From assembly GCA_039680575.1 (NCBI GenBank), contig JBDKSP010000088.1, positions 12,417 to 76,416 on the forward strand: DNA of 64,000 bases, in the 5' to 3' direction. This DNA comes from Armatimonadota bacterium. GTDB taxonomy: Bacteria; Armatimonadota; UBA5829; DTLH01. A program made the translations under genes and the position numbers. Positions 37,523 through 60,223 of the stretch are shown one piece after another (positions within the stretch are counted from its first letter, which is position 1; each line of letters begins with the position of its first letter). The notes below the pieces were generated by a model. That model searched no databases. It was not told the origin of the DNA and worked only from the letters and a program-made list of their open reading frames with translations.

Positions 37523-39298
37523 TTGAATCTAAGGAAGCACGAGAGGCTTTATAGGCTGGTGTCCTGTGTCACGGTGTTTGGATTCATACTGCCGTTGATG
37601 CTGACAGTATTTCCGCAGGCTGCTGTAGCACAGTCACAGGCTCAGACGCCGATGCAAGTAGGCGTGGTCGAATTCCGTAATGATTCTGGCGTGCAGGGAA
37701 GTATGCTTGCCAGGTTTGCTACGGACGCGGTGGTAATCGAGCTCAGCAAGTCGGACCGCTTTGATGTTATCACAAGAGCGCAGATCGATGCGCAGATGAA
37801 AGACCTTGGAATTGCCAACCCGCTTAACAGCGTCGAGCGTAACAGATTGGGAGAGGCTCTCTACGCCGATGCTATGATCGAAGGTTCAATCAAGGCAGTC
37901 GAACTCCGGGGCAGCGGGTCTACACGCCGTGCTGCCGTCACCATTGTCATTCGAATGGTCGATCAGTCATCCGGCGAGGTCATTAACGGCGCTATCCAGA
38001 CAGGTACCAGTAATGTGCGTGTCGGCAGCAGTCCGGACGATGACAAGCTGATTTCGGAAGCCATTAACAACGCTGCATATCAGGCTGTCAAAACGATGAT
38101 CGATTACATCATCCCCGAGGCGACAGTCCAGAATACGATCAGAACCAATGAGATTCTGTTGAATAAGGGTGCCAGAGACGGCATCAGGTTAGGTATGCGG
38201 ATGATCGTTACGCGGGACCGCGAGATCATTGGGGAAGTCGAGATCAGGAAGGTAGACCCGGACAACGCGACGGGTTTCATAGTAAAGCAGACACGGGGAA
38301 TCAGCCCGGAAGACAAGGCTAGAGCAGTATTCGATATGCCGGAGATCGCCAGAGTACAGGCGGATTCCGGTACGAAATCCGGTCCTCCTACCGTTTCATC
38401 AAAGAAGTCGAGTTCTTTGCCTAAGATCGGTAGAGTGCTCCTGGGTGTACTTGTTGCCTGGGGTGTATCGAAAATCTTCGATTCTGATGGCACAGAAAGC
38501 GTCGGTGGTGTGACCGCTGAAGCAGGATTGTCCGGTTATAACCTGCCCGTTGAAAGCGGCAGCCCCGGTGTTAGGGTAAAATGGGATGCCAGTAAACTCG
38601 GACGCGGCAAGAATGTCATAGAGTATCATATCTGGAGGAACGACGTAAGCGGTCCAGTGCTTACAGCCCGCGCTTCGGATGGTGTAGCTTTTGATGATGC
38701 AAACACCAGGTCTACAGCATATACCACCGCCAACAGCGAGACGAATGCTAAGACTACCGGCACGACTACAGTTCCTGCTATGACACTCAGCACGCCTCTT
38801 AAATACTGGGTTTCCGCGCTTTATATGGTCCAGTCTTCGGATAGCACTCTATATTATGAAACGGACAAAGTTGCTACCGGCCAGGCGACACCTATGTCTC
38901 AGATAGCTGTAGCAAATCTCACGCTGCCGGCTGCTGGCAGTCAGCAGAACTTGCAGAAAGTAACATTTGAGTGGCTTTCCAGAAGAGGCGCGGATGTCTA
39001 CATAGTTGAAGTTTCAAGCGACCCGACATTCCAGAACCCTGAATATGTAAGCAGTCCTGTATACTACTCTCCGGCCGCAGATGGTCAGACGGTAAGGCTG
39101 GTGGTATCAGCGTCACTCTATAACTTATTCTCAAGCACAACAAGTGATCAACCGATCTGGTGGCGAGTCGGGATGCGGGCAAGTGGAGACTCACCTGGAC
39201 CAATTCCGGCAAGCGGAAGGTCCAGTATGCGATATTTATATAGTGAAATAAACTCATTCTATCCGGCTGATACACCTCCGGGCACGCCGGATCAGTAA
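37523..39298 (+). CDS. Exported CsgG/FlgT-like protein with internal hydrophobic segment and C-terminal beta-sandwich domains
   Basis: GGGGAGGA RBS before TTG 37523; signal peptide ending AVA-Q; VGVVEF..RFDVITR.QID..LGEAL.AD..IEG..IRMVD..SGEV; LNKG..DG...GM; ends DTPPGTPDQ. Confidence 0.7.
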   Translation: MNLRKHERLYRLVSCVTVFGFILPLMLTVFPQAAVAQSQAQTPMQVGVVEFRNDSGVQGSMLARFATDAVVIELSKSDRFDVITRAQIDAQMKDLGIANPLNSVERNRLGEALYADAMIEGSIKAVELRGSGSTRRAAVTIVIRMVDQSSGEVINGAIQTGTSNVRVGSSPDDDKLISEAINNAAYQAVKTMIDYIIPEATVQNTIRTNEILLNKGARDGIRLGMRMIVTRDREIIGEVEIRKVDPDNATGFIVKQTRGISPEDKARAVFDMPEIARVQADSGTKSGPPTVSSKKSSSLPKIGRVLLGVLVAWGVSKIFDSDGTESVGGVTAEAGLSGYNLPVESGSPGVRVKWDASKLGRGKNVIEYHIWRNDVSGPVLTARASDGVAFDDANTRSTAYTTANSETNAKTTGTTTVPAMTLSTPLKYWVSALYMVQSSDSTLYYETDKVATGQATPMSQIAVANLTLPAAGSQQNLQKVTFEWLSRRGADVYIVEVSSDPTFQNPEYVSSPVYYSPAADGQTVRLVVSASLYNLFSSTTSDQPIWWRVGMRASGDSPGPIPASGRSSMRYLYSEINSFYPADTPPGTPDQ

Positions 39299-39401
39299 GA
39301 ATTGCTTTCAGCATCGGCCGCACCGTTCGCTATATTGAGATAAAGAGCGGGCGGCCGACCCGCTACAAGCGGGTCGGGACGACAGGGAGGTACAGGAGAA
39401 G

Positions 39402-42398
39402 TTGAACCATAGATATTTACAACTGATGCGATGCAAATGGGCTGTTATCTTATTCGCGGTGTTCGTGCTATCCGCGAATGCTGTCGCAGCAGATACTCCG
39501 GCAACATCGGCTTATGTACAAAACCAGTTATTAGTCCGGCTCGCGCCTGGCCTGACTGAAGCCGAGCGAGATGCCGCATTTGATAAGATTGGCGCCAAAT
39601 TGATCCGCCCTCTGGCGCTTGCAAACACATATCTCGTCGAGCTTGTGCCTACCCGTGGCGAAACTGTTCAATCTGCAATGACCAGGGCAAGTTCAGTAAC
39701 AGACATCACTACCGTCGGTCCGAACTATCGAAGATATCCTACTGCTTCGGTCCCGAATGATACTTTGTGGTCGAAGCTCTGGGGTATGAAGATGATAAAC
39801 GCGGACGATGCCTGGGATATTACGAAGGGCAGCTCCAGCGTAATTGTTGCTGTGCTCGATACCGACTTCAGCCTCGATCATCCCGATCTGAAAGACAGAT
39901 ACCTGCCAGGCACGGATACGGCGATGGGCGATGGTGATCCTTCTCCATGGGCTCAGAAGGATAAGTTGAGTCATGGGACCCATGTCACCGGTATTATAGC
40001 AGCCCAGGGAAACAACAGCGAAGGTGTCGTTGGTGTCTGCTGGGATGGAGTAAAGATTCTCCCCATAAAAGTGTTTGCTGACGATGGGTCAGGTGACTCG
40101 GCAGCCGTAATAGATGGACTGTATTATGCGAAAGCACAGGGCGCCCAGGTTATAAATATGAGCCTGGGTGGGGTTTATTCCGATTCTTTCGAGCATGACG
40201 CACTAAAAGACCTGTACGCTGCTGGTATTATAATCGTTGCATCCGCGGGTAATGAGGCTTCGACAGTCAGCTATCCCGCTGCGTATGCTGAAGTAATAGC
40301 GGTTTCCGCGTTGGGCGATGATGAACGTCCGGCCGATTACACAAACTACGGTTCTGAAATAGATATTGCCGCTCCTGGCGGTGAAGATGTCGAGGATGGC
40401 GCAGGTTCTATCTGGAGCACCTGCTGGTCCAAAGACAAAGGGAATTATTACTCAGGCTTGCAAGGGACATCGATGGCAGCGCCGCATGTCGCTGGCGCAG
40501 CAGCTCTTATGATCTCGTCAGGTATATCACCGAGCCAGGTTACAGGTATGCTTTACCGCGCAGCAAGATCGCCTAAAGTCGGTGTTCTCGATCCTTTGAA
40601 ATATGGAAATGGAATTCTCGATCTGTATCAGGCGATGCATGCAAATGCTGAAATCAATATAGTAACACCGGAAGATGCAGAAGTACTGGATACAACAACT
40701 CCTCAGTTCAAGATATCGACTTATCTTGTCCAGAAGAGCAGTATCAAGATTTATCTGGACTTTACGGATGCAAATAAAGACGGAACGCCAGATAATCTTG
40801 ATGAAAGTATCGTGCTGAACGGCACGACAATGGATTCGGATTCAAATGCCTCCTGGGATGCCGAAACCAGCACTCTTACTTTGAATTGGCCGTCAGTCGG
40901 ACAATCTCCACTGTCATCAGGCACTCATACAGTATGCGTTATGGGCGACCCTGAATCAGGCGCCAATTCCGGGACAGTAAAGGACTGGAAAGTATTTTTT
41001 GTAAGACCGAAAGTGATTTCGGCAGGGCGGCACATGTTATCGATTCCTTATCCGCTGTCGTCGGATGTGACACCTTCTGATTTATTCGGAGGGGATGATT
41101 TCTGGTTGGCCAGATACATTCCATCCCAAGATTCTTATGCCACGATAAACTATCCGTCGGGAAATGATGAAGATGCTGCCTGGCCGTCGAATCCAGGCGT
41201 ACATCCGCACGGTGATACTACGGATACTCCTCCTGCGGGTCTAGGATACTTCGTCGAGGTACTAACGGATACACCAATTTCAGTAAGTGGAACTGCAGAT
41301 AAGACCAGAGCTTATGATATTACCTTGACTCGAGGGTCGACCGGATGGAATATGATAGGAAACCCGTTCCCATTCCAGGTTGCTTGGGATAGTGTGAAGC
41401 TCACATATAGAGGTAAAACGCTGACGTTGAGAGACGCAGTTACAGCCGGTTGGATTCGTCAGGCTCTGTATAGATATACAACATCAGGATATACATTCGA
41501 GAATGATCTTATGAAGGCGGTTCTGGTACCTTGGGAGGGAAACTGGGTAAGGATACTTCCTGATTATCCGGATAGAAATACCGATACCATGGTCCTAATG
41601 GTCCCCCCGGTCGAGTCGACTTCTATTGTAGATGCATCAAAAAGCCGCGAGGCTACAACCAGCGATGGTTGGTCTGTAAATCTTGTAGCAAAAGTAGGAG
41701 ATGCTGTCGATTCTCAAAATCTGATAGGTATAGACAGCAGAGCGTCCGAAGGTTACGACAAGCTTGATGTAGAAGAACCGCCGGTTTTTAACGACTATGT
41801 TCAGTTGTCTTTCACGCATAGTGATTGGGTAGACAAAACAGGCCGTTACGCAAGCGACTTCAGGTCGAGTATAGGGACAGGCAAGACTTGGGAATTTAGC
41901 GTCAAAACTGATACATTGAACAAGGATGTTTCGATATCCTGGCCTGGAATAGCTTCAGTACCGAAGAATTGCCGGCTTGTCCTGGAAGATCTCGACAGCG
42001 GTAACAAGGTATATATGCGGACTAGAAACAACTATATATACAACTCAGGAACAACCGAAAGCTCAAGAAGATTCAAGTTATATGCAGAACCGTCGGACAG
42101 CGGTTCTCTGATGATTACAAATGTAGCTATCTCTCAAACGAGAGGATCAAGCGTAAGTATTAATTATACGATCTCGCGTGATGCGAGTGTTGAAGTCCGT
42201 GTGCGAGATAACAGGAATAAACTGATTCGCAAATTGGGCGGAAATACAACTCGCGCCGCAGGGATTAATTCGATGAGCTGGGACTGTGCCCTCAACAACG
42301 GAGACCAGGCTCCCAGCGGTCTATATATGGCGGAGATCGTTGCTACCGGACCGGATGGTGAGGTGGCAAAGACTATCAGGCCGATTCTGGTAAGGTGA
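39402..42398 (+). CDS. Secreted S8 subtilase with propeptide and C-terminal cassette ending in a FlgD-Ig-like domain
   Basis: Triad VAVLDTD / HGTHVTG / GTSMAAPHVAG, oxyanion SAGN; signal peptide; SWD..G..P.G.Y tail. Confidence 0.9.
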   Translation: MNHRYLQLMRCKWAVILFAVFVLSANAVAADTPATSAYVQNQLLVRLAPGLTEAERDAAFDKIGAKLIRPLALANTYLVELVPTRGETVQSAMTRASSVTDITTVGPNYRRYPTASVPNDTLWSKLWGMKMINADDAWDITKGSSSVIVAVLDTDFSLDHPDLKDRYLPGTDTAMGDGDPSPWAQKDKLSHGTHVTGIIAAQGNNSEGVVGVCWDGVKILPIKVFADDGSGDSAAVIDGLYYAKAQGAQVINMSLGGVYSDSFEHDALKDLYAAGIIIVASAGNEASTVSYPAAYAEVIAVSALGDDERPADYTNYGSEIDIAAPGGEDVEDGAGSIWSTCWSKDKGNYYSGLQGTSMAAPHVAGAAALMISSGISPSQVTGMLYRAARSPKVGVLDPLKYGNGILDLYQAMHANAEINIVTPEDAEVLDTTTPQFKISTYLVQKSSIKIYLDFTDANKDGTPDNLDESIVLNGTTMDSDSNASWDAETSTLTLNWPSVGQSPLSSGTHTVCVMGDPESGANSGTVKDWKVFFVRPKVISAGRHMLSIPYPLSSDVTPSDLFGGDDFWLARYIPSQDSYATINYPSGNDEDAAWPSNPGVHPHGDTTDTPPAGLGYFVEVLTDTPISVSGTADKTRAYDITLTRGSTGWNMIGNPFPFQVAWDSVKLTYRGKTLTLRDAVTAGWIRQALYRYTTSGYTFENDLMKAVLVPWEGNWVRILPDYPDRNTDTMVLMVPPVESTSIVDASKSREATTSDGWSVNLVAKVGDAVDSQNLIGIDSRASEGYDKLDVEEPPVFNDYVQLSFTHSDWVDKTGRYASDFRSSIGTGKTWEFSVKTDTLNKDVSISWPGIASVPKNCRLVLEDLDSGNKVYMRTRNNYIYNSGTTESSRRFKLYAEPSDSGSLMITNVAISQTRGSSVSINYTISRDASVEVRVRDNRNKLIRKLGGNTTRAAGINSMSWDCALNNGDQAPSGLYMAEIVATGPDGEVAKTIRPILVR

Positions 42399-42421
42399 TT
42401 GTGATAGGAGATAGAGTATTT

Positions 42422-45106
42422 ATGCTACGAACAGCAAAAATATTTGCCATTGTATTGTCGGCAGTCGCTTTGATCGTGCTGTCTGCCCCCGTATTCGCGC
42501 AGGATTATACTGCCGGTACCAGTAACGAATATCTGTTGGTAATGATGGGTCAGCAGGAAGATGTGTATGTATACGAGCCAGAAGAAAAGCCTGTCGAAAA
42601 GCCAAGGTCAGGCCGGTGGGTGATATATACTGTCAAAGGCGATCCGGAAATATCGGATGATGATAATATTCCGTTGGTAAGGACAGCGGCTGACGGTGGA
42701 CCGGGATGGAGACATGGGTTCACAACCATAAGAGTAGATAATACCAGTGAAATATTCGGAGATACTTCTCGCGGAGCTTGGGTGCTTTATCCATATATAA
42801 GTGATAAAGAAACGGGCAACTATGTGGGACTTACAGGGCAATATGTGTGCGGCCTGTGGTATGTTAACGCATCGGCTATAACTGCAAGATTCCGAATGGC
42901 GCTGGTAAGGGACCAGGTGAGGCTTGAAGTAGTACTGACCAATTATGACACCAAATCACATTATGTTGGTCTGAGACACTGCTGCGATGTAACAACCGAT
43001 GGAAATATAGATTCCATAACGCATCCGTATGTTCCAGGCAGTGGAGTTGTAATGGCTGAGACCGATTATTTAGGGTCAGCAATACCGGACTACTTTGAAA
43101 TGTATGATAGTATCAGCAGTCCCAAGGTAGCAGTGAGAAATACTCTAAACGAGCAGGATGCAACTGCACCTGACAGAGCAGCATTCGGTTCCTGGCAAAA
43201 TATGCAGGGAAGCGATTGGGACTTTACCGCTATACCGGATAGAGCTGTAGGGGATTACGGCTGGGCGCTCTGGTGGGCGCCTGCGCTCCTCAATCCACGT
43301 GAATCCAGGACAATTATCACTTATTTTGGAATGGCAGCAGCTACCAGTTCTTGGACATCAGATAGCGGCAGCATTGGGTCAGTGCCAAAGCAGGATCCTT
43401 TCTGCGTGGCAGTGCAGGGACCAAAATCACTCAGTATAGATTATGATTCAAGCCAGTCATCCGATACGATGCTGCAGACTAATCCGTTCAAGATAAAAGC
43501 ATATATATACAACCTGTATACTGGTGATACGACACTGAAAGATGTTCAAGTTCACTTAACCTTACCGGACGGATTAGAGTTGGTAGACGGGACCGCTACT
43601 CAAGAGATAACCAGCATACCGCCTGAAAGCGAAGGACTACCAGTAAGCTGGAATGTAAAGGCAACTGGTAAAGTGACAGGCACGCTCGATTATATCGTAA
43701 CAGTTAGCGGCTCGCCGGGGTTACAAAAGCAATTGACACGTAGTATAGTAGTCCCTTCTACAGGGACTACTCAGATACAGACAGGATGGCAGATGATCTC
43801 GACGCCATTCAAATTCGAGGATTCAAGGATAGAAGAAGCTCTGAATCTGGCGGATGATACTTATAGCGCATCATCATGGAATCCTCAGACACAAAGTTAT
43901 GATACTGTTACGAATATAGCCCCTGGTAAGGGGTACTGGTTAAAATCAACTATAGATAGGCCGACTACAAGAGTATCGACTAGCGCGAAACCTTTGTCGG
44001 GAGCTGAATCATATTCAATAGACCTTTATACTGGCTGGAATCAGTTTGGAAACCCGTACATTTATCCTATTCCTTGGGGAAGAGTAAGGGTTTTGGGGAC
44101 AGCACAGGACGGACTGCTTACGATAGACGAGGCAGTTTCAAAGAACCTCATCAGAAAGACTATTTACTGGTGGGATACTGCCGCTGGTGAATATAGTATG
44201 TCATCAGATGAGATGGAAAATCTGGTTCCCTGGCAGGGGTATTGGATAAAAGCTAAGCAGCCATGCCAGTTGATTATTCCTGCAGTCAGTGAGATAGGTG
44301 CAACCTTAAGTGGAGATACTACGAGAAGTAGAGGAAAAGCATCTTCTGCTTCCAGTACGACGAAATGTGATGGATGGAACCTAAAACTTGTGGCGAGAGC
44401 GGGAGAAGTTGAAGATTCCACAAATTATATAGGTATCGATAGCCGTGCATCGGACACATACGATTCAGCGGACATAGAAGAGCCGCCATCACCCGGTGAT
44501 TATGTCAGTATAAGTTTTCCACATACGGATTGGGGAGCTAACAGCGGTAATTATCTTTCGGACATCAGAAGATCCACAGGTGGGACACAGACCTGGGAGT
44601 TCAATGTAACATGTGATAAGAAAAATACGGATGTTGTATTGACATGGCCGGCTTTATCTGGTGTATCGAAAGATTATACTCTGAAAATGACTGATGTAGA
44701 CGGCAGCTTGACCAGATATATGCGGACTACAAGCTCATATAAATATAACTCTGGCGAAGGTGGAGTAAGAAGGTTTAAGCTTGTTGCCGAACCAAGAGGT
44801 AATAACAGCTTAATTATAAGCGGACTTGGAATAAATACTTCTCGAGCGAACGGCAGCGCAACGATATCTTATAATCTTTCCGCGGATGCGTCTACTGATG
44901 TCAGGATCAAATCGACTTCGGGCAGGATGGTCCGTAGCCTGGCCAAAGGTAGAGGCGTTACAAGAGGAATTAATAATCTTACCTGGAACTATCGGGATGA
45001 AACCGGAGAGGCGGTTCCTGCTGGCAGTTATATGCTGGAAGTAGTGGCAACTACACAGGAGGGAGAGGTCGTTAAGACGATACGGCCATTCCTCGTGGCA
45101 AGGTAG
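42422..45106 (+). CDS. Secreted protein with the same C-terminal cassette as the subtilase
   Basis: Signal peptide (VFA-Q); C-terminal ~440 aa align by eye with the subtilase C-terminus. Confidence 0.8.
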   Translation: MLRTAKIFAIVLSAVALIVLSAPVFAQDYTAGTSNEYLLVMMGQQEDVYVYEPEEKPVEKPRSGRWVIYTVKGDPEISDDDNIPLVRTAADGGPGWRHGFTTIRVDNTSEIFGDTSRGAWVLYPYISDKETGNYVGLTGQYVCGLWYVNASAITARFRMALVRDQVRLEVVLTNYDTKSHYVGLRHCCDVTTDGNIDSITHPYVPGSGVVMAETDYLGSAIPDYFEMYDSISSPKVAVRNTLNEQDATAPDRAAFGSWQNMQGSDWDFTAIPDRAVGDYGWALWWAPALLNPRESRTIITYFGMAAATSSWTSDSGSIGSVPKQDPFCVAVQGPKSLSIDYDSSQSSDTMLQTNPFKIKAYIYNLYTGDTTLKDVQVHLTLPDGLELVDGTATQEITSIPPESEGLPVSWNVKATGKVTGTLDYIVTVSGSPGLQKQLTRSIVVPSTGTTQIQTGWQMISTPFKFEDSRIEEALNLADDTYSASSWNPQTQSYDTVTNIAPGKGYWLKSTIDRPTTRVSTSAKPLSGAESYSIDLYTGWNQFGNPYIYPIPWGRVRVLGTAQDGLLTIDEAVSKNLIRKTIYWWDTAAGEYSMSSDEMENLVPWQGYWIKAKQPCQLIIPAVSEIGATLSGDTTRSRGKASSASSTTKCDGWNLKLVARAGEVEDSTNYIGIDSRASDTYDSADIEEPPSPGDYVSISFPHTDWGANSGNYLSDIRRSTGGTQTWEFNVTCDKKNTDVVLTWPALSGVSKDYTLKMTDVDGSLTRYMRTTSSYKYNSGEGGVRRFKLVAEPRGNNSLIISGLGINTSRANGSATISYNLSADASTDVRIKSTSGRMVRSLAKGRGVTRGINNLTWNYRDETGEAVPAGSYMLEVVATTQEGEVVKTIRPFLVAR

Positions 45107-45172
45107 TTCAGTTTGTTTGAAATGAGATATCGCAGGTTAATTGATAGGACAGGCTGGAAGGAAGATTTGAAT

Positions 45173-48100: not shown

Positions 48101-51100
48101 CTTACAAACTACAATACAGATCCGGATTTCCCAGTAAGCTTTGCTGGCGGCGACCCGTTAACACCGGTTATGCCATCTCCGATAGTCTCTGATTCGATAA
48201 TCAGCGATGATGGAGCATCGAGCACAACATATACGTTTAGAGTTCGCTATTGGAACAAGGATAACATTCCTCCAAGAGCATGGCTAAAACCGTGGGCGGA
48301 TGAATCTGGCGCTTCCGAATCAACGGGTGTTGTATTGTATCTTGACCTGATGAATGTTCTCGATATTCCAGCAGAGAGCAGTCAAAGCAGCTATAGGCCG
48401 CACTTTATGACAAAGGAGTACACAGCCGATAACGACTATACAGACGGATGCGATTATATATATACAATCGCGCCGTCATCATCGAATGAGTACATATCCC
48501 TGATAACTGGAACATATCATTATTTCTTCGGATGTTCGGACGATTCGCTTAAATTAGATGATATGGATGATAACGTTGTTACAGATGATGACATTTTGCT
48601 TTTCGATGGTCAGCTGTCTGGCACTAGCTGGGCTAATTATGATCAAACTAGCAGGACACTTACCCGTTCCAGTACTGGCCTAGATCCTTTCGAGCCAAGA
48701 AGCCTTAATGACAATGACGGCAGGCCTTGGATGCCGAGAGATATGGGTAGACGTTATAGCGCCTTCGGTGATGATAGTCCAGGCAGACCAATTAAGGATG
48801 AACCGGGTCCGCAGGATTGCCAGATATATGTCGACAGGCAGGATAGAGCACCGGGTCAATTCGAGTTCCTCTATCCTCAGCAGTATGAGTGGAAGTGTAT
48901 AGAACATCCTGATATATCGATTACATTGAGTGGGTATGGCAGTAAAGCTGCCGATGGTTTCCCGAGGTTCTTTGGGACAATAAGTCCATTCTATAGAGCA
49001 GTAAACCCGAGCGAAGGTACACCGTGGGTATATGCCGGCTTCGGTTATATGGCTTCACGCATGGAATCTTGTGGCGCCACGACTTCGACTATGCTTACGT
49101 TCAAGGTCAAGTGTTATCAGAGGGATAATACTGCTCCGCTCTGGGTGAAGGTCTTCATAAACAATGAGAGTATGAAGATTCTCGATTACAATACAGGGCA
49201 GTCGATGAAACCGGAGAACGGCGGTTATACAGGCTATACAATGATGCCTGCTGCCGTCCAAACATCGGAGTATCAGTCACAGACAGCGCCATACGATTAT
49301 TCGCTTGGTGTTGATTACGAGTTCAAGACCCAGCTTCCCGCCGGGCCGCATACCTATTTCTTTATGGCAAACGATGGTATAGCGACTGCGCTTTATCCTG
49401 CAAGGCCTGAAGGAGATAAATGGATTGCAGGTGTACAGCAGAATGATGATGCCGGATTCGATAACAATTACTGTCCGGGACCATATATCAACAATGCATG
49501 CCAATTGTTGACCCCGAGCGTAACTCCGGCGACTGGTATCCAGGGACAGCAGTATGTATACAGGGTGCTATATAAAGATGCCGATGGGCAGCGCCCGTAT
49601 AAGACAAAGATATATATCGATACAGGTACCACAAGTGGCGTAATATCGGTAGATATGCTCAAAGAGGACCCATCCGCTTCTGATTATAAAAATGATGGCG
49701 TATGGTATGTGCTAAATACTGCAACGATGGAGGATCGTACACTTGCTAAGGGTGTAAGGCGCTATAGATTCGAGTTTACCGATGACTGGGGCAGGCCTGA
49801 CGATCCTAACGACGCAATAGAAGGTCAGATGACAAACTATCCAGCGTCTGGCTCCTGGGTAGATGGTCCTACTATCGGTGAGAATGTACCTCCGACACTA
49901 AGGTATGGGAAGATAGAGAGCCCGGATGGTACGGCAAACGGAGCTACGCTTTGGGGATTCGAAGTTGAATATAAAGACTTAAATAGCGATGCTCCCAAGT
50001 ATGTAACTCTATACACAGGCAGATTACAAGATGATGGTACCACGATAGAGTGGGACAACGGGACTCAAATGTCACAGGCCGACCCCGGTGACAGTATATA
50101 CAGTGATGGTTGTGATTTCGTGTTGCAGAAGAGGCTGGAGCAGGCATTAGATCCTACAGATGATGCGCCTACATATTATTATGCGTTTGAAGCGTCTGAT
50201 GGTATAAGCCTGGCGACATGGGTAGGAGAAGATGATCCGACAATTGATAAGATCTCTGAATCAGCGGGATGCCTTCTCAAGGAACCGCTTACAACAACGG
50301 ATTATCTGACTTATTCCTGTAGTAAAACGCCTATTGTAGGGACGCTGCAGAACCAGCCGACAGATGCCGGTATTCTTATAGACCCGATTGTTTGGGCTTA
50401 TATGAATGGCGATACGGCAAACCCGGTAATTTTGAGCCGGAAAGACGAGTATGTATGTAAAGGCGTAAACCAGAATCTAACAGGAGCGAACACTGTATCT
50501 CGATATTACCCGGCAGATCCTCCGGGTTCGGATTTGATTCCGGTTGAGGCAATAGACCCGGCATATAAGCCGGACATTACTGAGGTTATTGGTGTATATG
50601 ATAATTCCAGCTTAACAGGAACGAATTATTTCCTTGCGGATGATGGTACACCAGGAACATATTCAAGTACAAGTTTCATGATAACCTTGCAGAAGAGTCT
50701 CCCCTATGGTCAAAACTGGGTGTGGATCAAGTATAACCATAGCGGAAATCATTCTTATACGCTGGACCGGTGGAACGGTGAATTTACCTTCGATGAGGCA
50801 ATGGATTCTACAGATGTGTTAGTAGTAGACTATTTCTTCGGAACAAAACACGAAATTCCGATAGGAATAAATATACCGCCGACATTGAGTAGTCCAAAGC
50901 TTACACCGATGGTAGGCGGATCCGGCACAGACTTCGTATATTCTATAGAATATAAGGAGACTGAGGGGACGAATGGTCAAGCGCCATCGTTTGTTAGGGT
51001 CGTTATAGACGGTGTAGAGCACACGATGAGCACGACAGTGTCGGATACACCGTCCTATAGATCAAGCGTAGTATATAAATATACCGCGAAGCTTGAGAGC

Positions 51101-54100
51101 GGCGCGCATGAATATTACTTCACTACCAGTGATGGTGTGGGACTGGTAACATTACCGGAGGTGAATCAGACTACCGGAAAAATAGAGGCATACGTTGGAC
51201 CATGGGTGAATAATTCACCAGCGCTCAGCGATGGATCAGCGACACCGAACCCGGATTCCGGAAGTATAAGTACGACGCAGAGTGTAGTGTATTCGGTAAC
51301 TTACAGCGATCGCGACGGTGATTTGCCGATTACATTAGCTCCGTTCGCCAACGATCTGGGAGCGGCAGACGAAATAAAACTTATGAAGTTCCCGATGCCG
51401 CTGCTATACACGGACAACACAAATGAGACCTGGAATGTCGGAATCGTCGATGATATTATCGAAGACCCGGCTCAACCTGGTAAATACAGGTGTATTCGTG
51501 TTATGGGAAGTGACGGTCAATCAGCGAGTTATAAAGTAGACCAGTTTGCTGGAAAGCTGATACAGTTCATTGGCGGTGATCTGGACGGAAGAGTCTATCT
51601 GATTGCCAACAATACCAGCAACGTCCTCAAACTGATGACGGATGACATTATTGCTGATGGTCTTGTTAAAGGGGCTACATTCTCGATAGGTACTCTGAGG
51701 ATGTATAAAGATCCCCCGACACAGAGCAACTATCCCGCTGGTGTCGTATATAAAATTGTCATACCTCAGCTGCTTGATGGGACACACAAGTTCCACTTCA
51801 AAGCTGCATCGATAATAAGCCCACCGTCGTGGGTTGGAGAGCCTTGGAATACAACGACTGAATCAAGTATGACCAGATACCCTGGCTCTGGTGAGTTGAG
51901 TGGACCTGTGGTAGCGGCACAGGCGCCTTCGGGGAACCATGTTCCTGTATTATCACTATCTTCAGGTGATGTAGCAGTATCGCCTGCAAGTGGTAAGGAA
52001 TCAGATGCCTATGATTTCATTATCAATTATCGTGATGGAGATGGCGACCCGCCAAGATATCATGACAAAGTTATGGGAAGCGTACGCGTTGTCTTTAGTG
52101 ACGGCAGTTACGCAGCAGACCTTGTCCCGGTTGTAGTTGAAGATCAGGATGATACAACCTTCTATACAACAGACCGGAAGTTTACTACTAAGGCGAATGG
52201 ATTACCTGAAGGGAACCACAGGTTCCACTTCGAGGCATCGGATGGTTGGAACAAGGTACGTTGGCCTGTTGCATCTCAAGGAGACGATGAATCGGAGAAT
52301 GATCCGGTCGTAGTAGTGAATGCTAAAGCAAAACTGACTGATACGGCGGTAAATCCTCCAAACGGAGATACGAATACGACATTCACATTGAGCGTAATAT
52401 ATTCGGATGTGAATGGAGAAGGACCTTACATCGATTCATCTAGCGGTAATGAACAGGTATGGGTTGAGTTTGGCGGGAATAGCAGTAATAAGATATACCT
52501 GACAAGAAACTCAACGGATACCGACTATGCAAATGGCGTAACTTATAAAGGCACAAAGTCCGGATTATCCGCAGGCGCCATAAAGACTGTATTCAAGACT
52601 ACGGATAGCCTTGGTGAATTAACGACTGTAAATGGACCCACTATTGCTGTCAGCTCGAACATGAATGCTCCTGTTCTGGCTTCAGCGAAGGTGTTCAATA
52701 CTACGAAGCCTGCGGATACCAATGAGCTAGCTGCAGGTGGAACAGCAAATACATTCCGTTACGAAGTGAAGTACAGCGATCCTGATGGAGATATGCCGGT
52801 AGTTGTACAGAACGGAACAGTTGTCGAGGGCATAAAGCTATATGTCGACGGTGTATTGGAAGGGGTAATGACACAGAGAGCTGCAGATGTATATCTGCAG
52901 AACGGTAAACCTGACTACACGAAGCCTGTGACGTATTGGTATACGAAGAAGGGCGAGTCATACGATACAGCTATAAGTGCACATAGTTTCTACTTCCTTG
53001 CAAAGGATGGAAGCTCTGTAGATGCCCACGAAGTGAAGTCGTCTACTGTTACCGGACCGGTAATTCTGTCAGGCTCGATTGTTATGACCAGAGAAGTCTA
53101 CAGCTCAGGTAGTGGTACATGGGTAGATAAAGATCCCCAGCTTTCCGAGAGGGTAAAAGTAACGGGTGTTCTTAATGAGTCATCTGCAAAGCCAATATCC
53201 GGCTCACAGACTATAAAGATAACGATAACTAGACCTGATGGGACAGTATCATCGATTAATCTAACCGGAGCAGCAGCGGCTACTACAACGGTGAAGAAGA
53301 ACCAGTTCTCATTTGAAATGGAAACACCGATGATAAATAAGAACTGGGTAATCACCGCTAAATGGGATGGTAATTCAGACTATACTACGGCGGTTACTTC
53401 GGAATTGAAGATCAATGTCAGAGGACCGAGCCGTGTGGTAGCAACTACGGACATGAGTTCACCTGCTACGAGCACTCCTGTAGTAGATATGGTCTGTATG
53501 CCGCTTACAGCGATAAGCGGTGATCCCGGATCACTCTTCGGATACGATCGCACGAGATATATGCAGATCGTAAGATGGGATCCTGAGCAGAGGACATATA
53601 TGTCCTATGGCGATACATATTTCCCGCAGATTATAGCAGGGAATGCTGTATGGATCCTGCCGAAGTCGCAGTATACTGTGGAGACAATCACTGAGAATGA
53701 TCTGGTATCGCCGGTAGATTCGAGCCAGACCATTACTATCGGAAACCAGTATAGACTACTGAGACCGTTTGGACGGTTATATGATCAGGATCAGGACTGT
53801 GAGATCGTATTGAAGCAAGGTTGGAACCAGATAGGTTCGCCCTATCTGAATTCCACCCTGCTCAAGGATGCCACAGTGATATATCAGGGCAATGAGATCA
53901 CGATAGATCAGGCCGCTGCAAAAGGTTGGATAAGGAACTATGCTTGGATGTGGGATCCTGCTACACAGCTGGCAGACAAGCTGATCCATCCGACAAGGTC
54001 TGATGCATACAAGCGGACTATCGATCCGTGGAGAGGTTACTGGATAAGAGCTCTTGTAAACTGCACATTGGTATTGAAAGCGCCGTCAGATATCAGCGCA

Positions 54101-54199
54101 CAATCACTTGAAGTGCAGGAATACGGAGTCACTGCCAGAGACAGCAATGCTCAATCGCTGGATATGCCACCTGCCTCACCTGTTGGCAGTGGAAAATAG
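45173..54199 (+). CDS. Giant (~3000 aa) secreted repeat protein, probable surface adhesin/scaffold
   Basis: Uninterrupted ORF; signal peptide (VYA-N) after ATG 45173; about 9 beta-rich repeats; GWNQIGSPY..PWRGYW module; ends DMPPASPVGSGK. Confidence 0.85.
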   Translation: MIGVCKRLALVLVFIFGIMSPVYANLSGGTVGPAHPTVNSISNIRSVWEVEDQKIPDTEVWRTYELGRNRLTTASAWQVNPSYYSLQPDPDATITETYNAVDVVESVYVEVDGSGNIVLPENAVGIKGVWIDRWQRKSVWPGGAFTGNTITSAQVTLPAGIAHVFVSYYKAGTNLIHVENAPLPSEYTVYKYPVTAGLKKIVINPEILRLDPDTAGLRNGGDEWNNLLGVYDNESLKGVDYAASRNIDTASSTISFSRTVSSNVRNLYVKVSTYAIDYVSINGNQVLPTSYDPDTGEIVLPEEVTTGQAVEVSYRPLGRNVVTVAQVPITAVTSVSSENGNCTVQGFDAATGKITLQDPLEQGTRTLYCVYTATDMQNVTGEGSWSWMEGGKPFPIVRESDDQDQRYASLQPDPATGGVRVKGGHVKYGPYRLDEWVFHGVDRVDDEDAVGVTMLDGDGKTITTTGIVDAADDNWGWTGIFLLPAHEPVLIKSVIISSIIDGEFVTDNYAEFAQIMDIKTAAGDTVRGIYIDTDTADVGERAFAARISYYVSGKNMVLVPGPLPMPATVREIDLDNLFQPRSNLLRINPNLIQFDPDTENWRANALSTNLLDGYNVLGVFDNANLTGWNYWTPGSGKITIDATGAAVLQLNCVPTSSVTRLFVKVSSYAVDGVFTQSTGGANYYPGRLADALATDPGNDVMNDGHDYAWYDPNITSEKLESTGYAETRIGEIHLAKSLPASGQAVYVSWRKLSRKSVSPARPRVMAVPVFQYLGDPDMPMDEDENPPIDAIGYLSATPPVNSVRLNSSGSLPEGTQNVYYMEYHAGMCVGGTATSAVYVYGLLRFTFQPMYIVPAESSATEFVYRLAVSAGLNMSKAIQQPSYDLNDRTNNLLLMDPRAHPVDYAPLIKTEQGRIDPITREFEFYAASHPDKLGSTPTISQKGPISTTVHASTVGRGTDGTVDYGGTYRYGYGLDWLTNYNTDPDFPVSFAGGDPLTPVMPSPIVSDSIISDDGASSTTYTFRVRYWNKDNIPPRAWLKPWADESGASESTGVVLYLDLMNVLDIPAESSQSSYRPHFMTKEYTADNDYTDGCDYIYTIAPSSSNEYISLITGTYHYFFGCSDDSLKLDDMDDNVVTDDDILLFDGQLSGTSWANYDQTSRTLTRSSTGLDPFEPRSLNDNDGRPWMPRDMGRRYSAFGDDSPGRPIKDEPGPQDCQIYVDRQDRAPGQFEFLYPQQYEWKCIEHPDISITLSGYGSKAADGFPRFFGTISPFYRAVNPSEGTPWVYAGFGYMASRMESCGATTSTMLTFKVKCYQRDNTAPLWVKVFINNESMKILDYNTGQSMKPENGGYTGYTMMPAAVQTSEYQSQTAPYDYSLGVDYEFKTQLPAGPHTYFFMANDGIATALYPARPEGDKWIAGVQQNDDAGFDNNYCPGPYINNACQLLTPSVTPATGIQGQQYVYRVLYKDADGQRPYKTKIYIDTGTTSGVISVDMLKEDPSASDYKNDGVWYVLNTATMEDRTLAKGVRRYRFEFTDDWGRPDDPNDAIEGQMTNYPASGSWVDGPTIGENVPPTLRYGKIESPDGTANGATLWGFEVEYKDLNSDAPKYVTLYTGRLQDDGTTIEWDNGTQMSQADPGDSIYSDGCDFVLQKRLEQALDPTDDAPTYYYAFEASDGISLATWVGEDDPTIDKISESAGCLLKEPLTTTDYLTYSCSKTPIVGTLQNQPTDAGILIDPIVWAYMNGDTANPVILSRKDEYVCKGVNQNLTGANTVSRYYPADPPGSDLIPVEAIDPAYKPDITEVIGVYDNSSLTGTNYFLADDGTPGTYSSTSFMITLQKSLPYGQNWVWIKYNHSGNHSYTLDRWNGEFTFDEAMDSTDVLVVDYFFGTKHEIPIGINIPPTLSSPKLTPMVGGSGTDFVYSIEYKETEGTNGQAPSFVRVVIDGVEHTMSTTVSDTPSYRSSVVYKYTAKLESGAHEYYFTTSDGVGLVTLPEVNQTTGKIEAYVGPWVNNSPALSDGSATPNPDSGSISTTQSVVYSVTYSDRDGDLPITLAPFANDLGAADEIKLMKFPMPLLYTDNTNETWNVGIVDDIIEDPAQPGKYRCIRVMGSDGQSASYKVDQFAGKLIQFIGGDLDGRVYLIANNTSNVLKLMTDDIIADGLVKGATFSIGTLRMYKDPPTQSNYPAGVVYKIVIPQLLDGTHKFHFKAASIISPPSWVGEPWNTTTESSMTRYPGSGELSGPVVAAQAPSGNHVPVLSLSSGDVAVSPASGKESDAYDFIINYRDGDGDPPRYHDKVMGSVRVVFSDGSYAADLVPVVVEDQDDTTFYTTDRKFTTKANGLPEGNHRFHFEASDGWNKVRWPVASQGDDESENDPVVVVNAKAKLTDTAVNPPNGDTNTTFTLSVIYSDVNGEGPYIDSSSGNEQVWVEFGGNSSNKIYLTRNSTDTDYANGVTYKGTKSGLSAGAIKTVFKTTDSLGELTTVNGPTIAVSSNMNAPVLASAKVFNTTKPADTNELAAGGTANTFRYEVKYSDPDGDMPVVVQNGTVVEGIKLYVDGVLEGVMTQRAADVYLQNGKPDYTKPVTYWYTKKGESYDTAISAHSFYFLAKDGSSVDAHEVKSSTVTGPVILSGSIVMTREVYSSGSGTWVDKDPQLSERVKVTGVLNESSAKPISGSQTIKITITRPDGTVSSINLTGAAAATTTVKKNQFSFEMETPMINKNWVITAKWDGNSDYTTAVTSELKINVRGPSRVVATTDMSSPATSTPVVDMVCMPLTAISGDPGSLFGYDRTRYMQIVRWDPEQRTYMSYGDTYFPQIIAGNAVWILPKSQYTVETITENDLVSPVDSSQTITIGNQYRLLRPFGRLYDQDQDCEIVLKQGWNQIGSPYLNSTLLKDATVIYQGNEITIDQAAAKGWIRNYAWMWDPATQLADKLIHPTRSDAYKRTIDPWRGYWIRALVNCTLVLKAPSDISAQSLEVQEYGVTARDSNAQSLDMPPASPVGSGK

Positions 54200-54208
54200 A
54201 TAAAAAGG

Positions 54209-54234
54209 ACGGGTGTCTCTCAGGAGACACCCGT
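54209..54234 (+). terminator. Hairpin after the giant gene
   Basis: ACGGGTGTCTC-TCAG-GAGACACCCGT then TT. Confidence 0.6.
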
Positions 54235-54281
54235 TTGCACGCAGTATTATTCACCACCTGACTGGAGGAGAAGTTCAGCTT

Positions 54282-55091
54282 ATGATTAGGATCAGACAGA
54301 TGCGCTTGGTATCATATATAGCAGCATTGCTGATAGTTACGATGTATATATCTCCGGTTGCAAGTTTTGCAAAACGGGGACCCAGTAATGTTCTTCAGAA
54401 GAAAACAATACTTGTATACCCATTTGAAAATGCAGTAAAATCTTCGATTGAGACACTTTCGGATGATATAGCGAAAAGCCTGCAGTCTGCTATTAAGTCA
54501 ACTGATGGACTGAATGCAGTAGTATTCTCAGATCGGCTTCCATCCATTCAGAGATCGGTTAGAGAGCTCACATTGAAACCTGATGATGTAAAGGGACCGT
54601 TCGGGACCGACCAGGATCAGATAGCATGTGCTCTAAAAGTGTCTAAAGAAATTGCAGCAGACCTGCAGCTCATAGGATCTATAGATGCTGTTCAGGTAGA
54701 TACCGCGGCGAATAAGGCGGAAGTAACATTAAGTGCTGTATTGACGGATATTCGCACCGGTGAGACTGTCAAATCTATCGCTATTACAGGAAAAGCACCT
54801 GCAAATACATCAAAAGTAGATGCTGAGCTTGTTGCAATGGCGGCTGCCGATGCAGTTGCTCAAATGACAAAGGAGCTTGCTCCTGCAGGACAGACTATTA
54901 ACTCAGAACCGACGACGACAAAGGGGAATGAGCCGGTAGTAGTGAAGACGCGCAACAAAAAGAAGAAAAGCGCCCTTAGAAGGTTTATCATTCCGCTTGT
55001 GATCGGTGTTACGATAGCACTTGTCTCATCGAATAGTGATGATAATTCGAGCAGTGAAGATATCGATAATCCGCCGGTTGTTCCATTCTAG
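54282..55091 (+). CDS. Exported CsgG/TolB-N-like alpha/beta protein with basic-hydrophobic C-tail
   Basis: GGAGGAG RBS; signal peptide; ILVYPFEN..AD...IGSID..LTDIRTGE.VK; KKKKSALRR + hydrophobic stretch + DNPPVVPF. Confidence 0.6.
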   Translation: MIRIRQMRLVSYIAALLIVTMYISPVASFAKRGPSNVLQKKTILVYPFENAVKSSIETLSDDIAKSLQSAIKSTDGLNAVVFSDRLPSIQRSVRELTLKPDDVKGPFGTDQDQIACALKVSKEIAADLQLIGSIDAVQVDTAANKAEVTLSAVLTDIRTGETVKSIAITGKAPANTSKVDAELVAMAAADAVAQMTKELAPAGQTINSEPTTTKGNEPVVVKTRNKKKKSALRRFIIPLVIGVTIALVSSNSDDNSSSEDIDNPPVVPF

Positions 55092-55120
55092 ATCAAATAA
55101 CTAAGAAAGAGTCATCAGTT

Positions 55121-55154
55121 ACAGCGTGCCTCATATATATTTGGGACACGCTGT
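55121..55154. terminator. Imperfect hairpin between genes, followed by a TATAAT box
   Basis: ACAGCGTGCCTCA...TGGGACACGCTGT; TATAAT at 55162-55167. Confidence 0.4.
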
Positions 55155-55213
55155 ACTTATATATAATGCTCGTTTGTTTGACGGGCCTTATTCATGAGCT
55201 TAAACTATAATCG

Positions 55214-57154
55214 ATGCGAAATGTAGTATTATTGATCTCACTCACAGTACTTGTGTTTTATCCTGTGAGAGTATATTCTACCGGTTTTGCGACGAGTGTC
55301 TACCTGAGCGCTAACCCGGATGCGATAATTGCGGATGGCAAGAGCATTGCGACTATAGGCGCAGAGATCAGAGACTCAGATGGGAACCTGGTCCCGGACG
55401 GGACGCTCGTAAGTTTTTCCAGCAGCCTTGGGACTATCCAGTCTTCTGTCAGCACTACTGCTGGAGTTGCTCGTGCTCGGCTGTCAGGGGGTACTGTGAC
55501 AGGGACTGCAACAGTATCTGCATGGGTTACGCAGGGAGGAGCGGTCGGACAGGTGAAGGTTGAGCTTCTGGCTCCGGGAACCGAAATATCGCGGCAGTCT
55601 TTCGTAACCATCGCTTCAAAAAGCTACCTCGTTTACGATCCCGCAAAGATGGTCATCCAGGCTTCAGGCGGAGCGACTGTGATGCATAGAGGGCTGATGA
55701 TGAACGCCGACGAGATAGAGTTCGACCTACAAGCGGGGATTATCAAGTGCAGGCAGAGCGCTGGTGGGAAGATTATAAAGCTTTCGCGGGGAAACAAATC
55801 GCTTCAGGTCTGCGCGCTATATTATCGCGTAGAGGATATGAAGGGGAAGGCAATTATCGAGTCAGAAACCGGAAATATGGAGCGTGTATCTATTCGCGGT
55901 GCTGATATGGCAATCGAACCGGATACCGATAATCTTTCGCCTGTAATATTTAATTTTTCAGATATATCTATGAGCGATGTGCTGATGAAGGCATCAAGTA
56001 TAACCGTACGGCTCAAGGATGAGATACATTTTCGCCATGCTCAGGTCTATGTAGACGGTAAAAAGGTGCTTTCCGTGCCGCTTCACGTGCTTGAATTGGA
56101 CAGTTCGAAGTCCCAATCATCACAGTATGTGGGGTGGGGAGCTAATGGACTCAAAGTCGATGTGCCGCTTTACTATTCGCTTTCTCCGAGTTCGACCGGA
56201 GCTCTTCATGTTCGTCGCGGCCAGCAATCCGGGTGGGGATTCTATTCGGGGAACTCCGGCTGGTCGCTAGATCTCGTGCAGGACTATACTACAGACACCG
56301 GCGGCGAAGGAAATCTCGAGTTGAACGGAGTCACCAGTGGAGAATGGGGCGCAAACTGGCACTTCAACCAGCAGTATGACTCAGGAAGCCGGGTTTACAG
56401 CTACTTGTCTTTTCCAGCCCATAAGGACCTGTTTGGGATGATAAATCTATCGAAACCTTTGGGAAAATCAAGCCTGGGGCTGAACATATACGGTAATAAA
56501 TACCAGGATCAGAAGGGTAGTGTTTCGACAGACCTGTATTTACAGAGCCAACCAAAGCCGATTGCCGGTGGCGCCGCGAACTATGTGCTGCTTGGACGGA
56601 CATCCTATGCGACAGGTAATGATTCAAGCAATGATGGCGTCGGCGCTGGAGCACAGATGCAGGTTTACGGTAAGCCGGTCACGTTCAGTAAACGGGCTGG
56701 GCTCACAAATACGCTTACAATCGGGCAGGACTGGGGAGGTGAACGCTCCGGGTTTTCGCTTCTCGGCAACTCGTCTTTTAATTACAGGATTGGAAAGACC
56801 AGCAGCTTCGGGCTGGTATACTCATATACCCGTGATCCCAGCTACAGTGATCTATCCGGCCGCCACCGATTGAGCGCAAACATAATGTATATGCCTTCGA
56901 CGCTCTGGCAAGCGCGGATATACAGCACACAGATGATCGATACCCCGCAATCCAGCACATTCGCGGATGTTTCATACCGGCTTTTTCCTACATGGAGGAT
57001 TAATCTGCTCCAGACTTTCCAGTCATACGATAAATATGACTATTCGGACACCGAAATCGCACTTTGTAAAGAGATTCAGGACCATGAAATGATGCTTATC
57101 TGGTCTAAATCGAGGAATCGGTTCAGAGTAGAGTTTAACGTAGGTCAGTTCTAG
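55214..57154 (+). CDS. Outer-membrane protein: invasin-type Ig domain + OstA/LptD-like region + beta-barrel
   Basis: A.P..I.ADGKS..I.A.IRD..G..VPDGT.V.F (Ig); ASGG..V.H....ADEIEFD (OstA-like); amphipathic strands; terminal Phe (RVEFNVGQF). Confidence 0.65.
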   Translation: MRNVVLLISLTVLVFYPVRVYSTGFATSVYLSANPDAIIADGKSIATIGAEIRDSDGNLVPDGTLVSFSSSLGTIQSSVSTTAGVARARLSGGTVTGTATVSAWVTQGGAVGQVKVELLAPGTEISRQSFVTIASKSYLVYDPAKMVIQASGGATVMHRGLMMNADEIEFDLQAGIIKCRQSAGGKIIKLSRGNKSLQVCALYYRVEDMKGKAIIESETGNMERVSIRGADMAIEPDTDNLSPVIFNFSDISMSDVLMKASSITVRLKDEIHFRHAQVYVDGKKVLSVPLHVLELDSSKSQSSQYVGWGANGLKVDVPLYYSLSPSSTGALHVRRGQQSGWGFYSGNSGWSLDLVQDYTTDTGGEGNLELNGVTSGEWGANWHFNQQYDSGSRVYSYLSFPAHKDLFGMINLSKPLGKSSLGLNIYGNKYQDQKGSVSTDLYLQSQPKPIAGGAANYVLLGRTSYATGNDSSNDGVGAGAQMQVYGKPVTFSKRAGLTNTLTIGQDWGGERSGFSLLGNSSFNYRIGKTSSFGLVYSYTRDPSYSDLSGRHRLSANIMYMPSTLWQARIYSTQMIDTPQSSTFADVSYRLFPTWRINLLQTFQSYDKYDYSDTEIALCKEIQDHEMMLIWSKSRNRFRVEFNVGQF

Positions 57155-57250
57155 TTGAGCTGTCAGCTATCAGCTTTGTATGCTTCGAGACCGTAGTTCA
57201 TCCTACTCCGTGGACCCACGGGGAGAAGCACGAGTATCTACTAAGTTTAT

Positions 57251-57309
57251 GCTGCGGGAATGGCAGGTCTGTATAATCTATTGATTTACACAGATTTAAT
57301 TCCCGCAGC
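57251..57309. repeat. 59-bp TIR element, copy B
   Basis: GCTGCGGGAA...TTCCCGCAGC. Confidence 0.8.
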
Positions 57310-57326
57310 GGTAACATGTCGCAATA

Positions 57327-57387
57327 GCTGCGGGAACTGAATTAGGAGCAATAAGAAGGATACTCGTATAATTTCCGTTCCCGCAGC
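57327..57387. repeat. 61-bp TIR element, copy C
   Basis: GCTGCGGGAA...TTCCCGCAGC. Confidence 0.8.
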
Positions 57388-57425
57388 ATATATTTCCACT
57401 GATTTCTTCTGTTCTCTGTTTCCTC

Positions 57426-60068: not shown

Positions 60069-60223
60069 GATATATTCCCTCCAACTAACGGTTCTATCCG
60101 GGTCAGGGCTATTCCTTCTGGTTGGATAACAGTAAATATGAAAAATATAAGGAACTAGCTGAAGCGGGTAATTACGTATCAGAAATAGAGGTAATCCATA
60201 TCTGCTAATTTTAGGGGTAAAGG

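Follow-up and report, generated by a model that had tools for sequence, protein, structure and literature searches.

The described systems that come closest to the locus treated here are PelBC, the FlgT H-ring, CsgG, LptD and the type 9 secretion system. PelC forms rings that sit under a barrel (PMC12141448), an LptD homologue of Borrelia flips surface lipoproteins (bioRxiv 10.1101/2022.12.21.521298), and the type A C-terminal domain of type 9 cargo ends with a near-invariant Lys (PMC10994853). Closer still is a six-gene CsgG cluster with a subtilase, noted by Eloe-Fadrosh et al. in 2016 in three hot-spring Armatimonadetes genomes, for which amyloid secretion was hypothesised (PMC4737851, Supplementary Fig. 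10). The locus in question, genes A to F, occupies positions 37523 to 57154 of a stretch of 64,000 nucleotides (hereafter the window) from an Armatimonadota bacterium (GenBank assembly GCA_039680575.1, contig JBDKSP010000088.1, positions 12,417 to 76,416, forward strand). An initial annotation, made from the letters of the window alone, had called this system undescribed, which the 2016 report contradicts. In the open-access full-text literature, that report is the one description of the locus found, no paper was found that ties it to type 9-like export or to LptD, and the accessible part of the Fimbriimonas genome paper does not mention it.

The 2016 cluster resembles the present loci in its CarboxypepD/FlgD protein, CsgG-family protein, subtilase, FlgD-immunoglobulin (Ig) protein and hypothetical proteins, arranged as in three relatives of the window genome (G053, G065 and G084). 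It is unlike them in having been seen in three genomes and read as an amyloid system, whereas here the locus is phylum-wide and has a FlgT/PelC-type anchor layout, an LptD paralogue and a tie to a SprA-related barrel. The locus is judged to be neither curli nor flagellar nor a complete type 9 system; it is a functionally uncharacterised envelope locus, noted once before. Taken as a whole, it is best explained as the source of a protein coat that would be assembled and anchored at the outer face of the cell, a reading whose chances are judged about even. In what follows, genes, conservation, order, domain relationships and co-occurrence are observations, and folds are predictions. The features of the locus are listed below, where M1 and M2 are modules near the C-terminus and CTD is the FlgD-like C-terminal tail domain.

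37523-39298, plus strand: gene A, 591 amino acids (aa); signal peptide, PelC/CsgG/FlgT-type alpha/beta domain, FlgT-C-like small beta-barrel, basic linker, hydrophobic helix, two FN3 domains and DxPPxxP tail.
38429-38476, plus strand: hydrophobic helix that follows the Lys/Arg-rich linker of A (268-283 in the model of the mature protein), predicted outer-membrane anchor.
39355-39377, plus strand: hairpin between A and B (z -4.9 for 39325-39385), absent from the initial annotation.
39402-42398, plus strand: gene B, 998 aa; subtilase (prodomain and S8), M1, M2 and FlgD-like tail with terminal Arg.
42102-42395, plus strand: CTD of B, from the alignment.
42395-45106, plus strand: gene C, 903 aa; secreted; N-terminal half without assigned domain, then M1-M2-CTD.
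43805-44302, plus strand: M1 in C, by profile; also in B (41046-41615) and D (53501-54100).
44810-45103, plus strand: CTD of C, with near-invariant terminal Arg and a weak match to type 9 sorting-domain models.
45113-54199, plus strand: gene D, 3028 aa; secreted; nine repeats of about 120 aa (48161-53080), M1 and DxPPxxP tail, without CTD.
54207-54236, plus strand: hairpin between D and E (z -5.7), with a T-run on the minus strand.
54282-55091, plus strand: gene E; open reading frame (ORF) from 54213, likely start ATG 54282; signal peptide, A-type alpha/beta domain, basic linker, hydrophobic helix (54984-55028), acidic spacer and PP tail.
55117-55157, plus strand: hairpin between E and F (z -4.2).
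55214-57154, plus strand: gene F, 646 aa; Big_1 Ig domain, LptA-type jellyroll, large beta-barrel (about two dozen strands) and C-terminal Phe.

The six consecutive, co-oriented genes with signal peptides that had been annotated were confirmed as real ORFs at their positions, all on the plus strand; each protein has a signal-peptide-like N-terminus and none a lipobox Cys, both read by eye. The set A-F is a core locus of the Armatimonadota, real and phylum-wide. When 61 genomes were queried with single proteins, A was matched in 59, F in 61, C in 61 (counting any M1-type match) and E in 50, and a profile of A matched 245 of 251 genomes across the phylum, mostly in one copy. All named protein matches of A and of full-length F came from Armatimonadota, other phyla not having been searched genome by genome, and no relatives of A were found in viral contigs. 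Conservation of gene order in relatives had been set beforehand as a test, and the order A-B-C-D-E was kept in 25 of the 36 genomes inspected, two genomes being frameshifted and the count including six genes restored from protein-query matches of A and E; the 36 loci were chosen among those of 60 relatives by the length of their contigs and by their spread, with more weight on the same class. In 19 genomes F follows on the same stretch, two of these having 12-16 kb of unrelated sequence with other genes in between. Among distant families, the full set occurs in G065, A-B-C-E-F in G084 and G123, A-C-F in G099, G197, G230 and G258, and an M1 protein with A-E-F in G100 and G213.

A matches Pfam CsgG (2.8e-7), E matches only LpoB (0.0018, weak and under the cut-off), and a profile built on A matches E at 1.9e-6; E, annotated as a second CsgG-like protein, is by its sequence apparently a short paralogue of A. 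In the model of mature A (pLDDT 88.7, pTM 0.52, from an 80-row alignment), an alpha/beta domain is followed by a small beta-barrel, after which come a basic linker that is disordered, a single hydrophobic helix and the FN3 pair. The CsgG/FlgT-type fold that had been claimed for A was recovered, as Foldseek placed FlgT first (1.6e-12), followed by TolB-N, CsgG and PelC, and VIA-align gave a near tie of PelC (Z 14.1, rmsd 2.5, 131 aligned), PelBC (13.5) and CsgG (13.3, rmsd 3.4, 139 aligned); the FlgT match spans two domains of A. With PelBC, the FlgT H-ring and CsgG, A and E share a predicted alpha/beta ring-forming fold and an adjacent beta-barrel gene. Unlike them, A and E are not lipoproteins and continue into a hydrophobic helix and then FN3/Ig domains, and the A-F locus has no polysaccharide synthase, flagellar or curli genes.

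The helix has a mean hydropathy of at least 1.8 in 37 of 38 A orthologues and is preceded by a net positive stretch in all 38, and basic linker and helix occur together in 37/38 A, 20/30 E and 3/3 fused E proteins. The latter, from G059, G110 and G193, are proteins of 1500-2700 aa that carry the E domain and its helix at their start, ahead of a long FN3/Big_1-repeat chain. A and E are read as anchors mainly because this layout of ring domain, basic linker, helix and Ig-type chain recurs. By the positive-inside rule, a basic stretch ahead of the helix does not suit a type I anchor of the inner membrane well, and the helix is predicted to cross the outer membrane. Elsewhere in the window genome, G000:C24:7828-9318 encodes a 496-aa protein that is the third to carry an E-type domain (2.4e-11).

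The first five proteins had also been divided into two terminal classes, read as a sorting code. In the window, A, D and E do carry [DE]xPPxxP, and B and C the FlgD-like tail; the classes are not fixed among relatives, where the FlgD-like tail was found in just 5/28 B and 7/34 C orthologues examined, the proline tail has been gained by C in some lineages, and many D and E orthologues are without one. Only three ORFs of at least 200 aa in the genome have [DE]xPPxxP in their last 20 residues, namely A, D and E. PP in the last 16 residues was found in 29/38 A, 20/31 D, 16/30 E, 12/34 C and 2/28 B orthologues vs 41/1356 background ORFs; judged from these sequences, the proline tail is not due to chance. 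The exact motif is less kept (2, 7 and 10 in the A, D and E ortholog sets).

The C-terminal module that B, C and D had been said to share is M1, of about 170-200 aa, the sole module common to all B, C and D orthologues examined; B and C add M2 and the CTD. B matches Pfam S8 (3e-55, 188 bits) and FlgD_ig, and its Asp/His/Ser triad motifs (VLDTD, HGTHVTG and GTSMAAP) are intact; C matches FlgD_ig, and D has no Pfam or NCBIfam match. The repeat of D, in which BLAST shows no self-similarity, emerged by profile only, and its Atlas matches are all below 0.9, with Ig-like ones leading weakly. An M6 metalloprotease occupies the protease slot of B in G059 (4.9e-9) and, with a weak match, in G054; S8 is fused inside D in G003 and G005, the former without B and C; and some reduced loci lack any protease. 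Because the slot persists whether its enzyme belongs to the S8 or the M6 family, a protease seems to be wanted there, suggesting maturation of its neighbours. The Atlas model of M1-M2 of C matches clusters of type 9-tailed proteins from Zixibacteria and Bacteroidota (TM 0.75-0.79). Stand-alone M1 and M1-or-M2 modules occur on PEP-CTERM-tailed ORFs (C89:77620-79403 and C23:47156-47539), and thus the modules travel with different sorting tails. RNA runs yielded six short contigs (151-260 bases), within C and D only, which are uninformative on expression.

F had been described as an Ig domain with an LptD-like barrel, and both parts were found. Pfam matches Invasin_D3/Big_1, and the model (pLDDT 77.6, 49-row alignment) adds to the Big_1 domain a jellyroll, which matches LptA (Z 10.0), and a barrel of large size, with the top 15 Foldseek matches all LptD (E 1e-13 to 3e-10, at a low TM of 0.30-0.36). 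Aligned by hhalign, F matches at 98.2% over 413 columns an 874-aa LptD-like gene that adjoins an lptF/G permease on contig C89. F resembles LptD and Borrelia BB0838 in its jellyroll and large barrel, and BB0838 provides a precedent for an LptD homologue with a role in displaying proteins at the surface. F differs in its N-terminal Big_1 domain and in coexisting with the LptD-like gene beside lptF/G. That gene is the better candidate for the housekeeping LptD, and F is thus a second copy, an LptD paralogue with an added Ig domain. PF04453 had no match anywhere in this genome. There are three LptD-like genes counting F, the others at G000:C89:64510-67134 and C1:22113-23465; F as the sole housekeeping LptD was set aside because of these two. 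In G013, G023 and G039, a second F-like gene lies directly 3' of a Big_1-repeat protein of about 690 aa. A complex prediction of F with E (score 0.00, mark 0.32) carries no weight either way.

The locus had been proposed to be a dedicated surface machine. A dedicated and conserved surface/envelope system with its own protease is supported; self-contained export is not, as the CTD of B and C tracks a barrel gene, S, at another locus. A weak SprA match led to S, a barrel-like gene of 855 aa (G000:C82:22431-24998); PorV was not found. Next to S on C82 are csaB, genes for two lipoproteins, lptC/A-like genes and a further M1-M2-CTD gene, the third. The order there (C82:15038-28109) is DUF5693-like, csaB, S, lipoprotein, M1-M2-CTD protein, lipoprotein, lptC-like and lptA-like, and it is kept in G001, G002, G004, G005, G053, G059 and G060. 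In the S family, 23 of 36 members match SprA TIGR04189, the best at 2.8e-16, far under the cut-off of 200 bits, and the S profile gave nothing meaningful against PDB sequences. Of the CTDs, 13/33 match the type 9 sorting model TIGR04183 at E <=0.05, the window member with 15.7 bits against a cut-off of 23, and the model matched no control genome. The CTD, which ends with a near-invariant Arg, also matches the PorU CTD (0.0025), and FlgD matches are stronger. Another S-related protein, likewise barrel-like (790 aa, 1.5e-22 against the S profile), is encoded at G000:C21:14703-17075 and occurs in some S-less genomes too (G043, G047 and G048). The two loci were seen physically linked in G197 only, where about 4 kb separate A from S upstream of it.

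The CTD (called at a best E of about 1e-17 or lower) and S (called at 1e-40 or lower) were compared across 251 genomes, of which 249 were listed in either result and two unlisted ones match neither. Both are present in 152 of the 249 and neither in 88, with CTD only in 5 and S only in 4, which is an agreement of 240/249. In the four S-only genomes, CTD-like matches occur at 1e-12 to 1e-14. Two of these genomes were inspected; the CTDs of G136 proved truly terminal, and the two matches read in G061 internal. A new search of the five CTD-only genomes did not recover S. On a FastTree tree of 53 A proteins, S presence changes 7 times, at least 5 of them forced by strong branches. Because close kin of the same order and class lack both and distant families have both, sequence distance does not explain the pattern. 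Since the CTD tracks S, B and C likely leave the cell by a type 9-like route. Like the type 9 system, this pair would combine a C-terminal beta-sandwich tail, ending in a near-invariant basic residue (Lys there, Arg here), with a probable SprA-related barrel, and M1-M2 precede the tail. Unlike it, the S barrel is about 850-1100 aa vs 2319 positions of the SprA model, PorV was not found, the phylum is Terrabacterial, and the ring/LptD/protease locus has no type 9 counterpart. PorP/SprF and GldM (PF11751, TIGR03517) matched 0/61 genomes each, but the models matched no control genome; GldK/L/N were not searched.

Some expression data are available from cultured Fervidibacter sacchari, in which five consecutive genes, with accessions in the range WP_259093766-776, are annotated as carboxypeptidase-regulatory, hypothetical, M6 protease, hypothetical and Ig-like (supplement of PMC11535203). 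This order equals that of the Pfam matches at locus G059, the orthology being derived from order, not sequence. The five genes hold RNA rows 11, 38, 37, 64 and 3 (ranks 9, 36, 35, 62 and 1) and proteome rows 138, 711, 572, 178 and 100 of >2200 (PMC11535203). The top RNA row (row 3) is the Ig-like gene, ahead of an SLH protein, and this gene is an E-Ig fusion, not a D orthologue.

In the proposed coat, A and E would serve as anchors: their ring-forming domain would lie in the periplasm, the helix would span the outer membrane, and the FN3/Ig domains or a proline tail would face outward. The coat itself would be made of B, C and D, held together by M1, and B would also act as maturation protease. 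From the co-occurrence, B and C likely cross the outer membrane by the FlgD-like tail through the S barrel and not via A/E. The weakest step is that of F, which would likely bring the helix-anchored proteins to the surface and perhaps also cargo without a tail, D among it. Rings, topology, location, binding and substrates are all parts of the proposal. A further reading, possible if on the doubtful side, makes A/E/F a new outer-membrane display machine in which the LptD paralogue threads helix-anchored ring proteins, while a miniature type 9 pore stocks a phylum-defining coat with M1 subunits.

Several points weigh against the coat. The CTD and S thresholds were picked after the scores had been seen, and both profiles were seeded from genomes with both. 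C still has a CTD in the one-contig genome G230 and in G258, from both of which S is absent, and G009 has CTDs and no S match. Nearly all of the 88 genomes without CTD and S keep A, and those inspected keep B, C and D reduced to M1 or M2; even in the window genome, D is without a CTD. The proposed coat thus offers no exit for tail-less M1 proteins, which might be exported by F/A/E or, as would fit too, stay in the periplasm. PorV (NF033709), the known type 9 carrier, is missing although the Bacteroides control matched. The helix is missing in 10/30 E orthologues, F is often far from the cluster (e.g., G012, G013, G040, G042 and G053), and F could simply move lipid. Finally, the F. sacchari link is by annotation order, and the RNA counts are not length-normalised and favour long genes.

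A somewhat unlikely alternative is that A/E/F are a dedicated export machine for all M1 proteins, a ring under a barrel like PelC under PelB, with the CTD and S only docking or retaining cargo. Precedents are the PelC rings under a barrel (PMC12141448) and the Borrelia LptD homologue that flips surface lipoproteins (bioRxiv 10.1101/2022.12.21.521298). It would account for the persistence of A/E/F where S and CTD are lost, for minimal loci of A-E-F or A-F plus one M1 protein, and for M1 alone being common to all B, C and D. However, F is often unlinked, a barrel of LptD size is generally narrow for folded multi-domain cargo, and the likeness of the CTD and S to a type 9 signal and pore is simpler as export.

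Unlikely, too, is a periplasmic assembly, a scaffold that ties the outer membrane; here B, C and D would never leave the periplasm and F would transport lipid. The FlgT, PelC, TolB-N and LpoB folds are periplasmic, the locus survives the loss of S, and the F. sacchari periplasm measures 55 nm (PMC11535203). Co-occurrence of the CTD with S speaks against retention, as do M1-M2 on type 9 cargo and PEP-CTERM proteins, and the Big_1 chains and the M6/S8 protease swap are typical of surface proteins.

The 2016 hypothesis, in which A (and E) is a CsgG-type pore secreting a functional amyloid (PMC4737851), appears very unlikely. It draws on the Pfam CsgG match and on CsgG being among the top fold matches (Z 13.3). 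That fold is common to PelC, FlgT, LpoB and TolB-N; the matches to PelC and FlgT are at least as good, and the one to FlgT extends over two domains. The lipoprotein Cys is absent from A and E, and the hairpins of the A monomer model have strands of 12-13 residues with short, polar tips. The curlin repeat PF07012 was not found in the 96.8% complete genome, although the E. coli control matched, and the proposed amyloid gene (a CarboxypepD_reg protein) is absent from the window locus. That A is a flagellar H-ring (FlgT) component and the locus a flagellar accessory is largely refuted, with hardly any chance left, because A is present in all 19/61 genomes without a flgH match and the locus never adjoins flagellar genes in the loci inspected, even though FlgT is the best Foldseek match and the genome has flgH. 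The initial annotation saw no curli subunit, type 9 core or flagellar gene in the locus, and neither curlin nor PorV was found; flagellar genes do exist elsewhere in the genome, and they do not explain A.

Upstream of A-F lie polA-rpsA-coaE-like genes (coaE by Pfam, polA and rpsA read from the sequence), where G+C is 51-54% vs 44-48% across most of the cluster. The hairpins annotated at 54209 and 55121 are real, with the z values listed above, and a promoter scan of the window was at chance level (33 vs 34.6). Between F and a GH116 glycoside hydrolase gene (57426-60245, minus strand), which adjoins F in G001 and G004 too, repeated or inverted 'ttcccgcagc / gctgcgggaa' elements occur at 57240-57400. 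At 26715-27953, the window encodes a secreted protein of 412 aa whose C-terminal half resembles, by eye, the tail of the C4:31456 subtilase and a segment at C43:29882, possibly a further shared surface module.

Surface building in the Armatimonadota is almost unstudied, and this universal locus, whose expression seems to be high in a cultured member, is probably one of the phylum's main envelope systems. The 2016 amyloid reading is replaced by predictions that are testable in the cultured strain, and the locus offers a direct test both of LptD paralogues displaying proteins and of type 9-like export without PorV and a motor. If true, an A/E/F display machine in a Terrabacterial phylum would suggest that type 9 secretion had an ancient forerunner without a motor.

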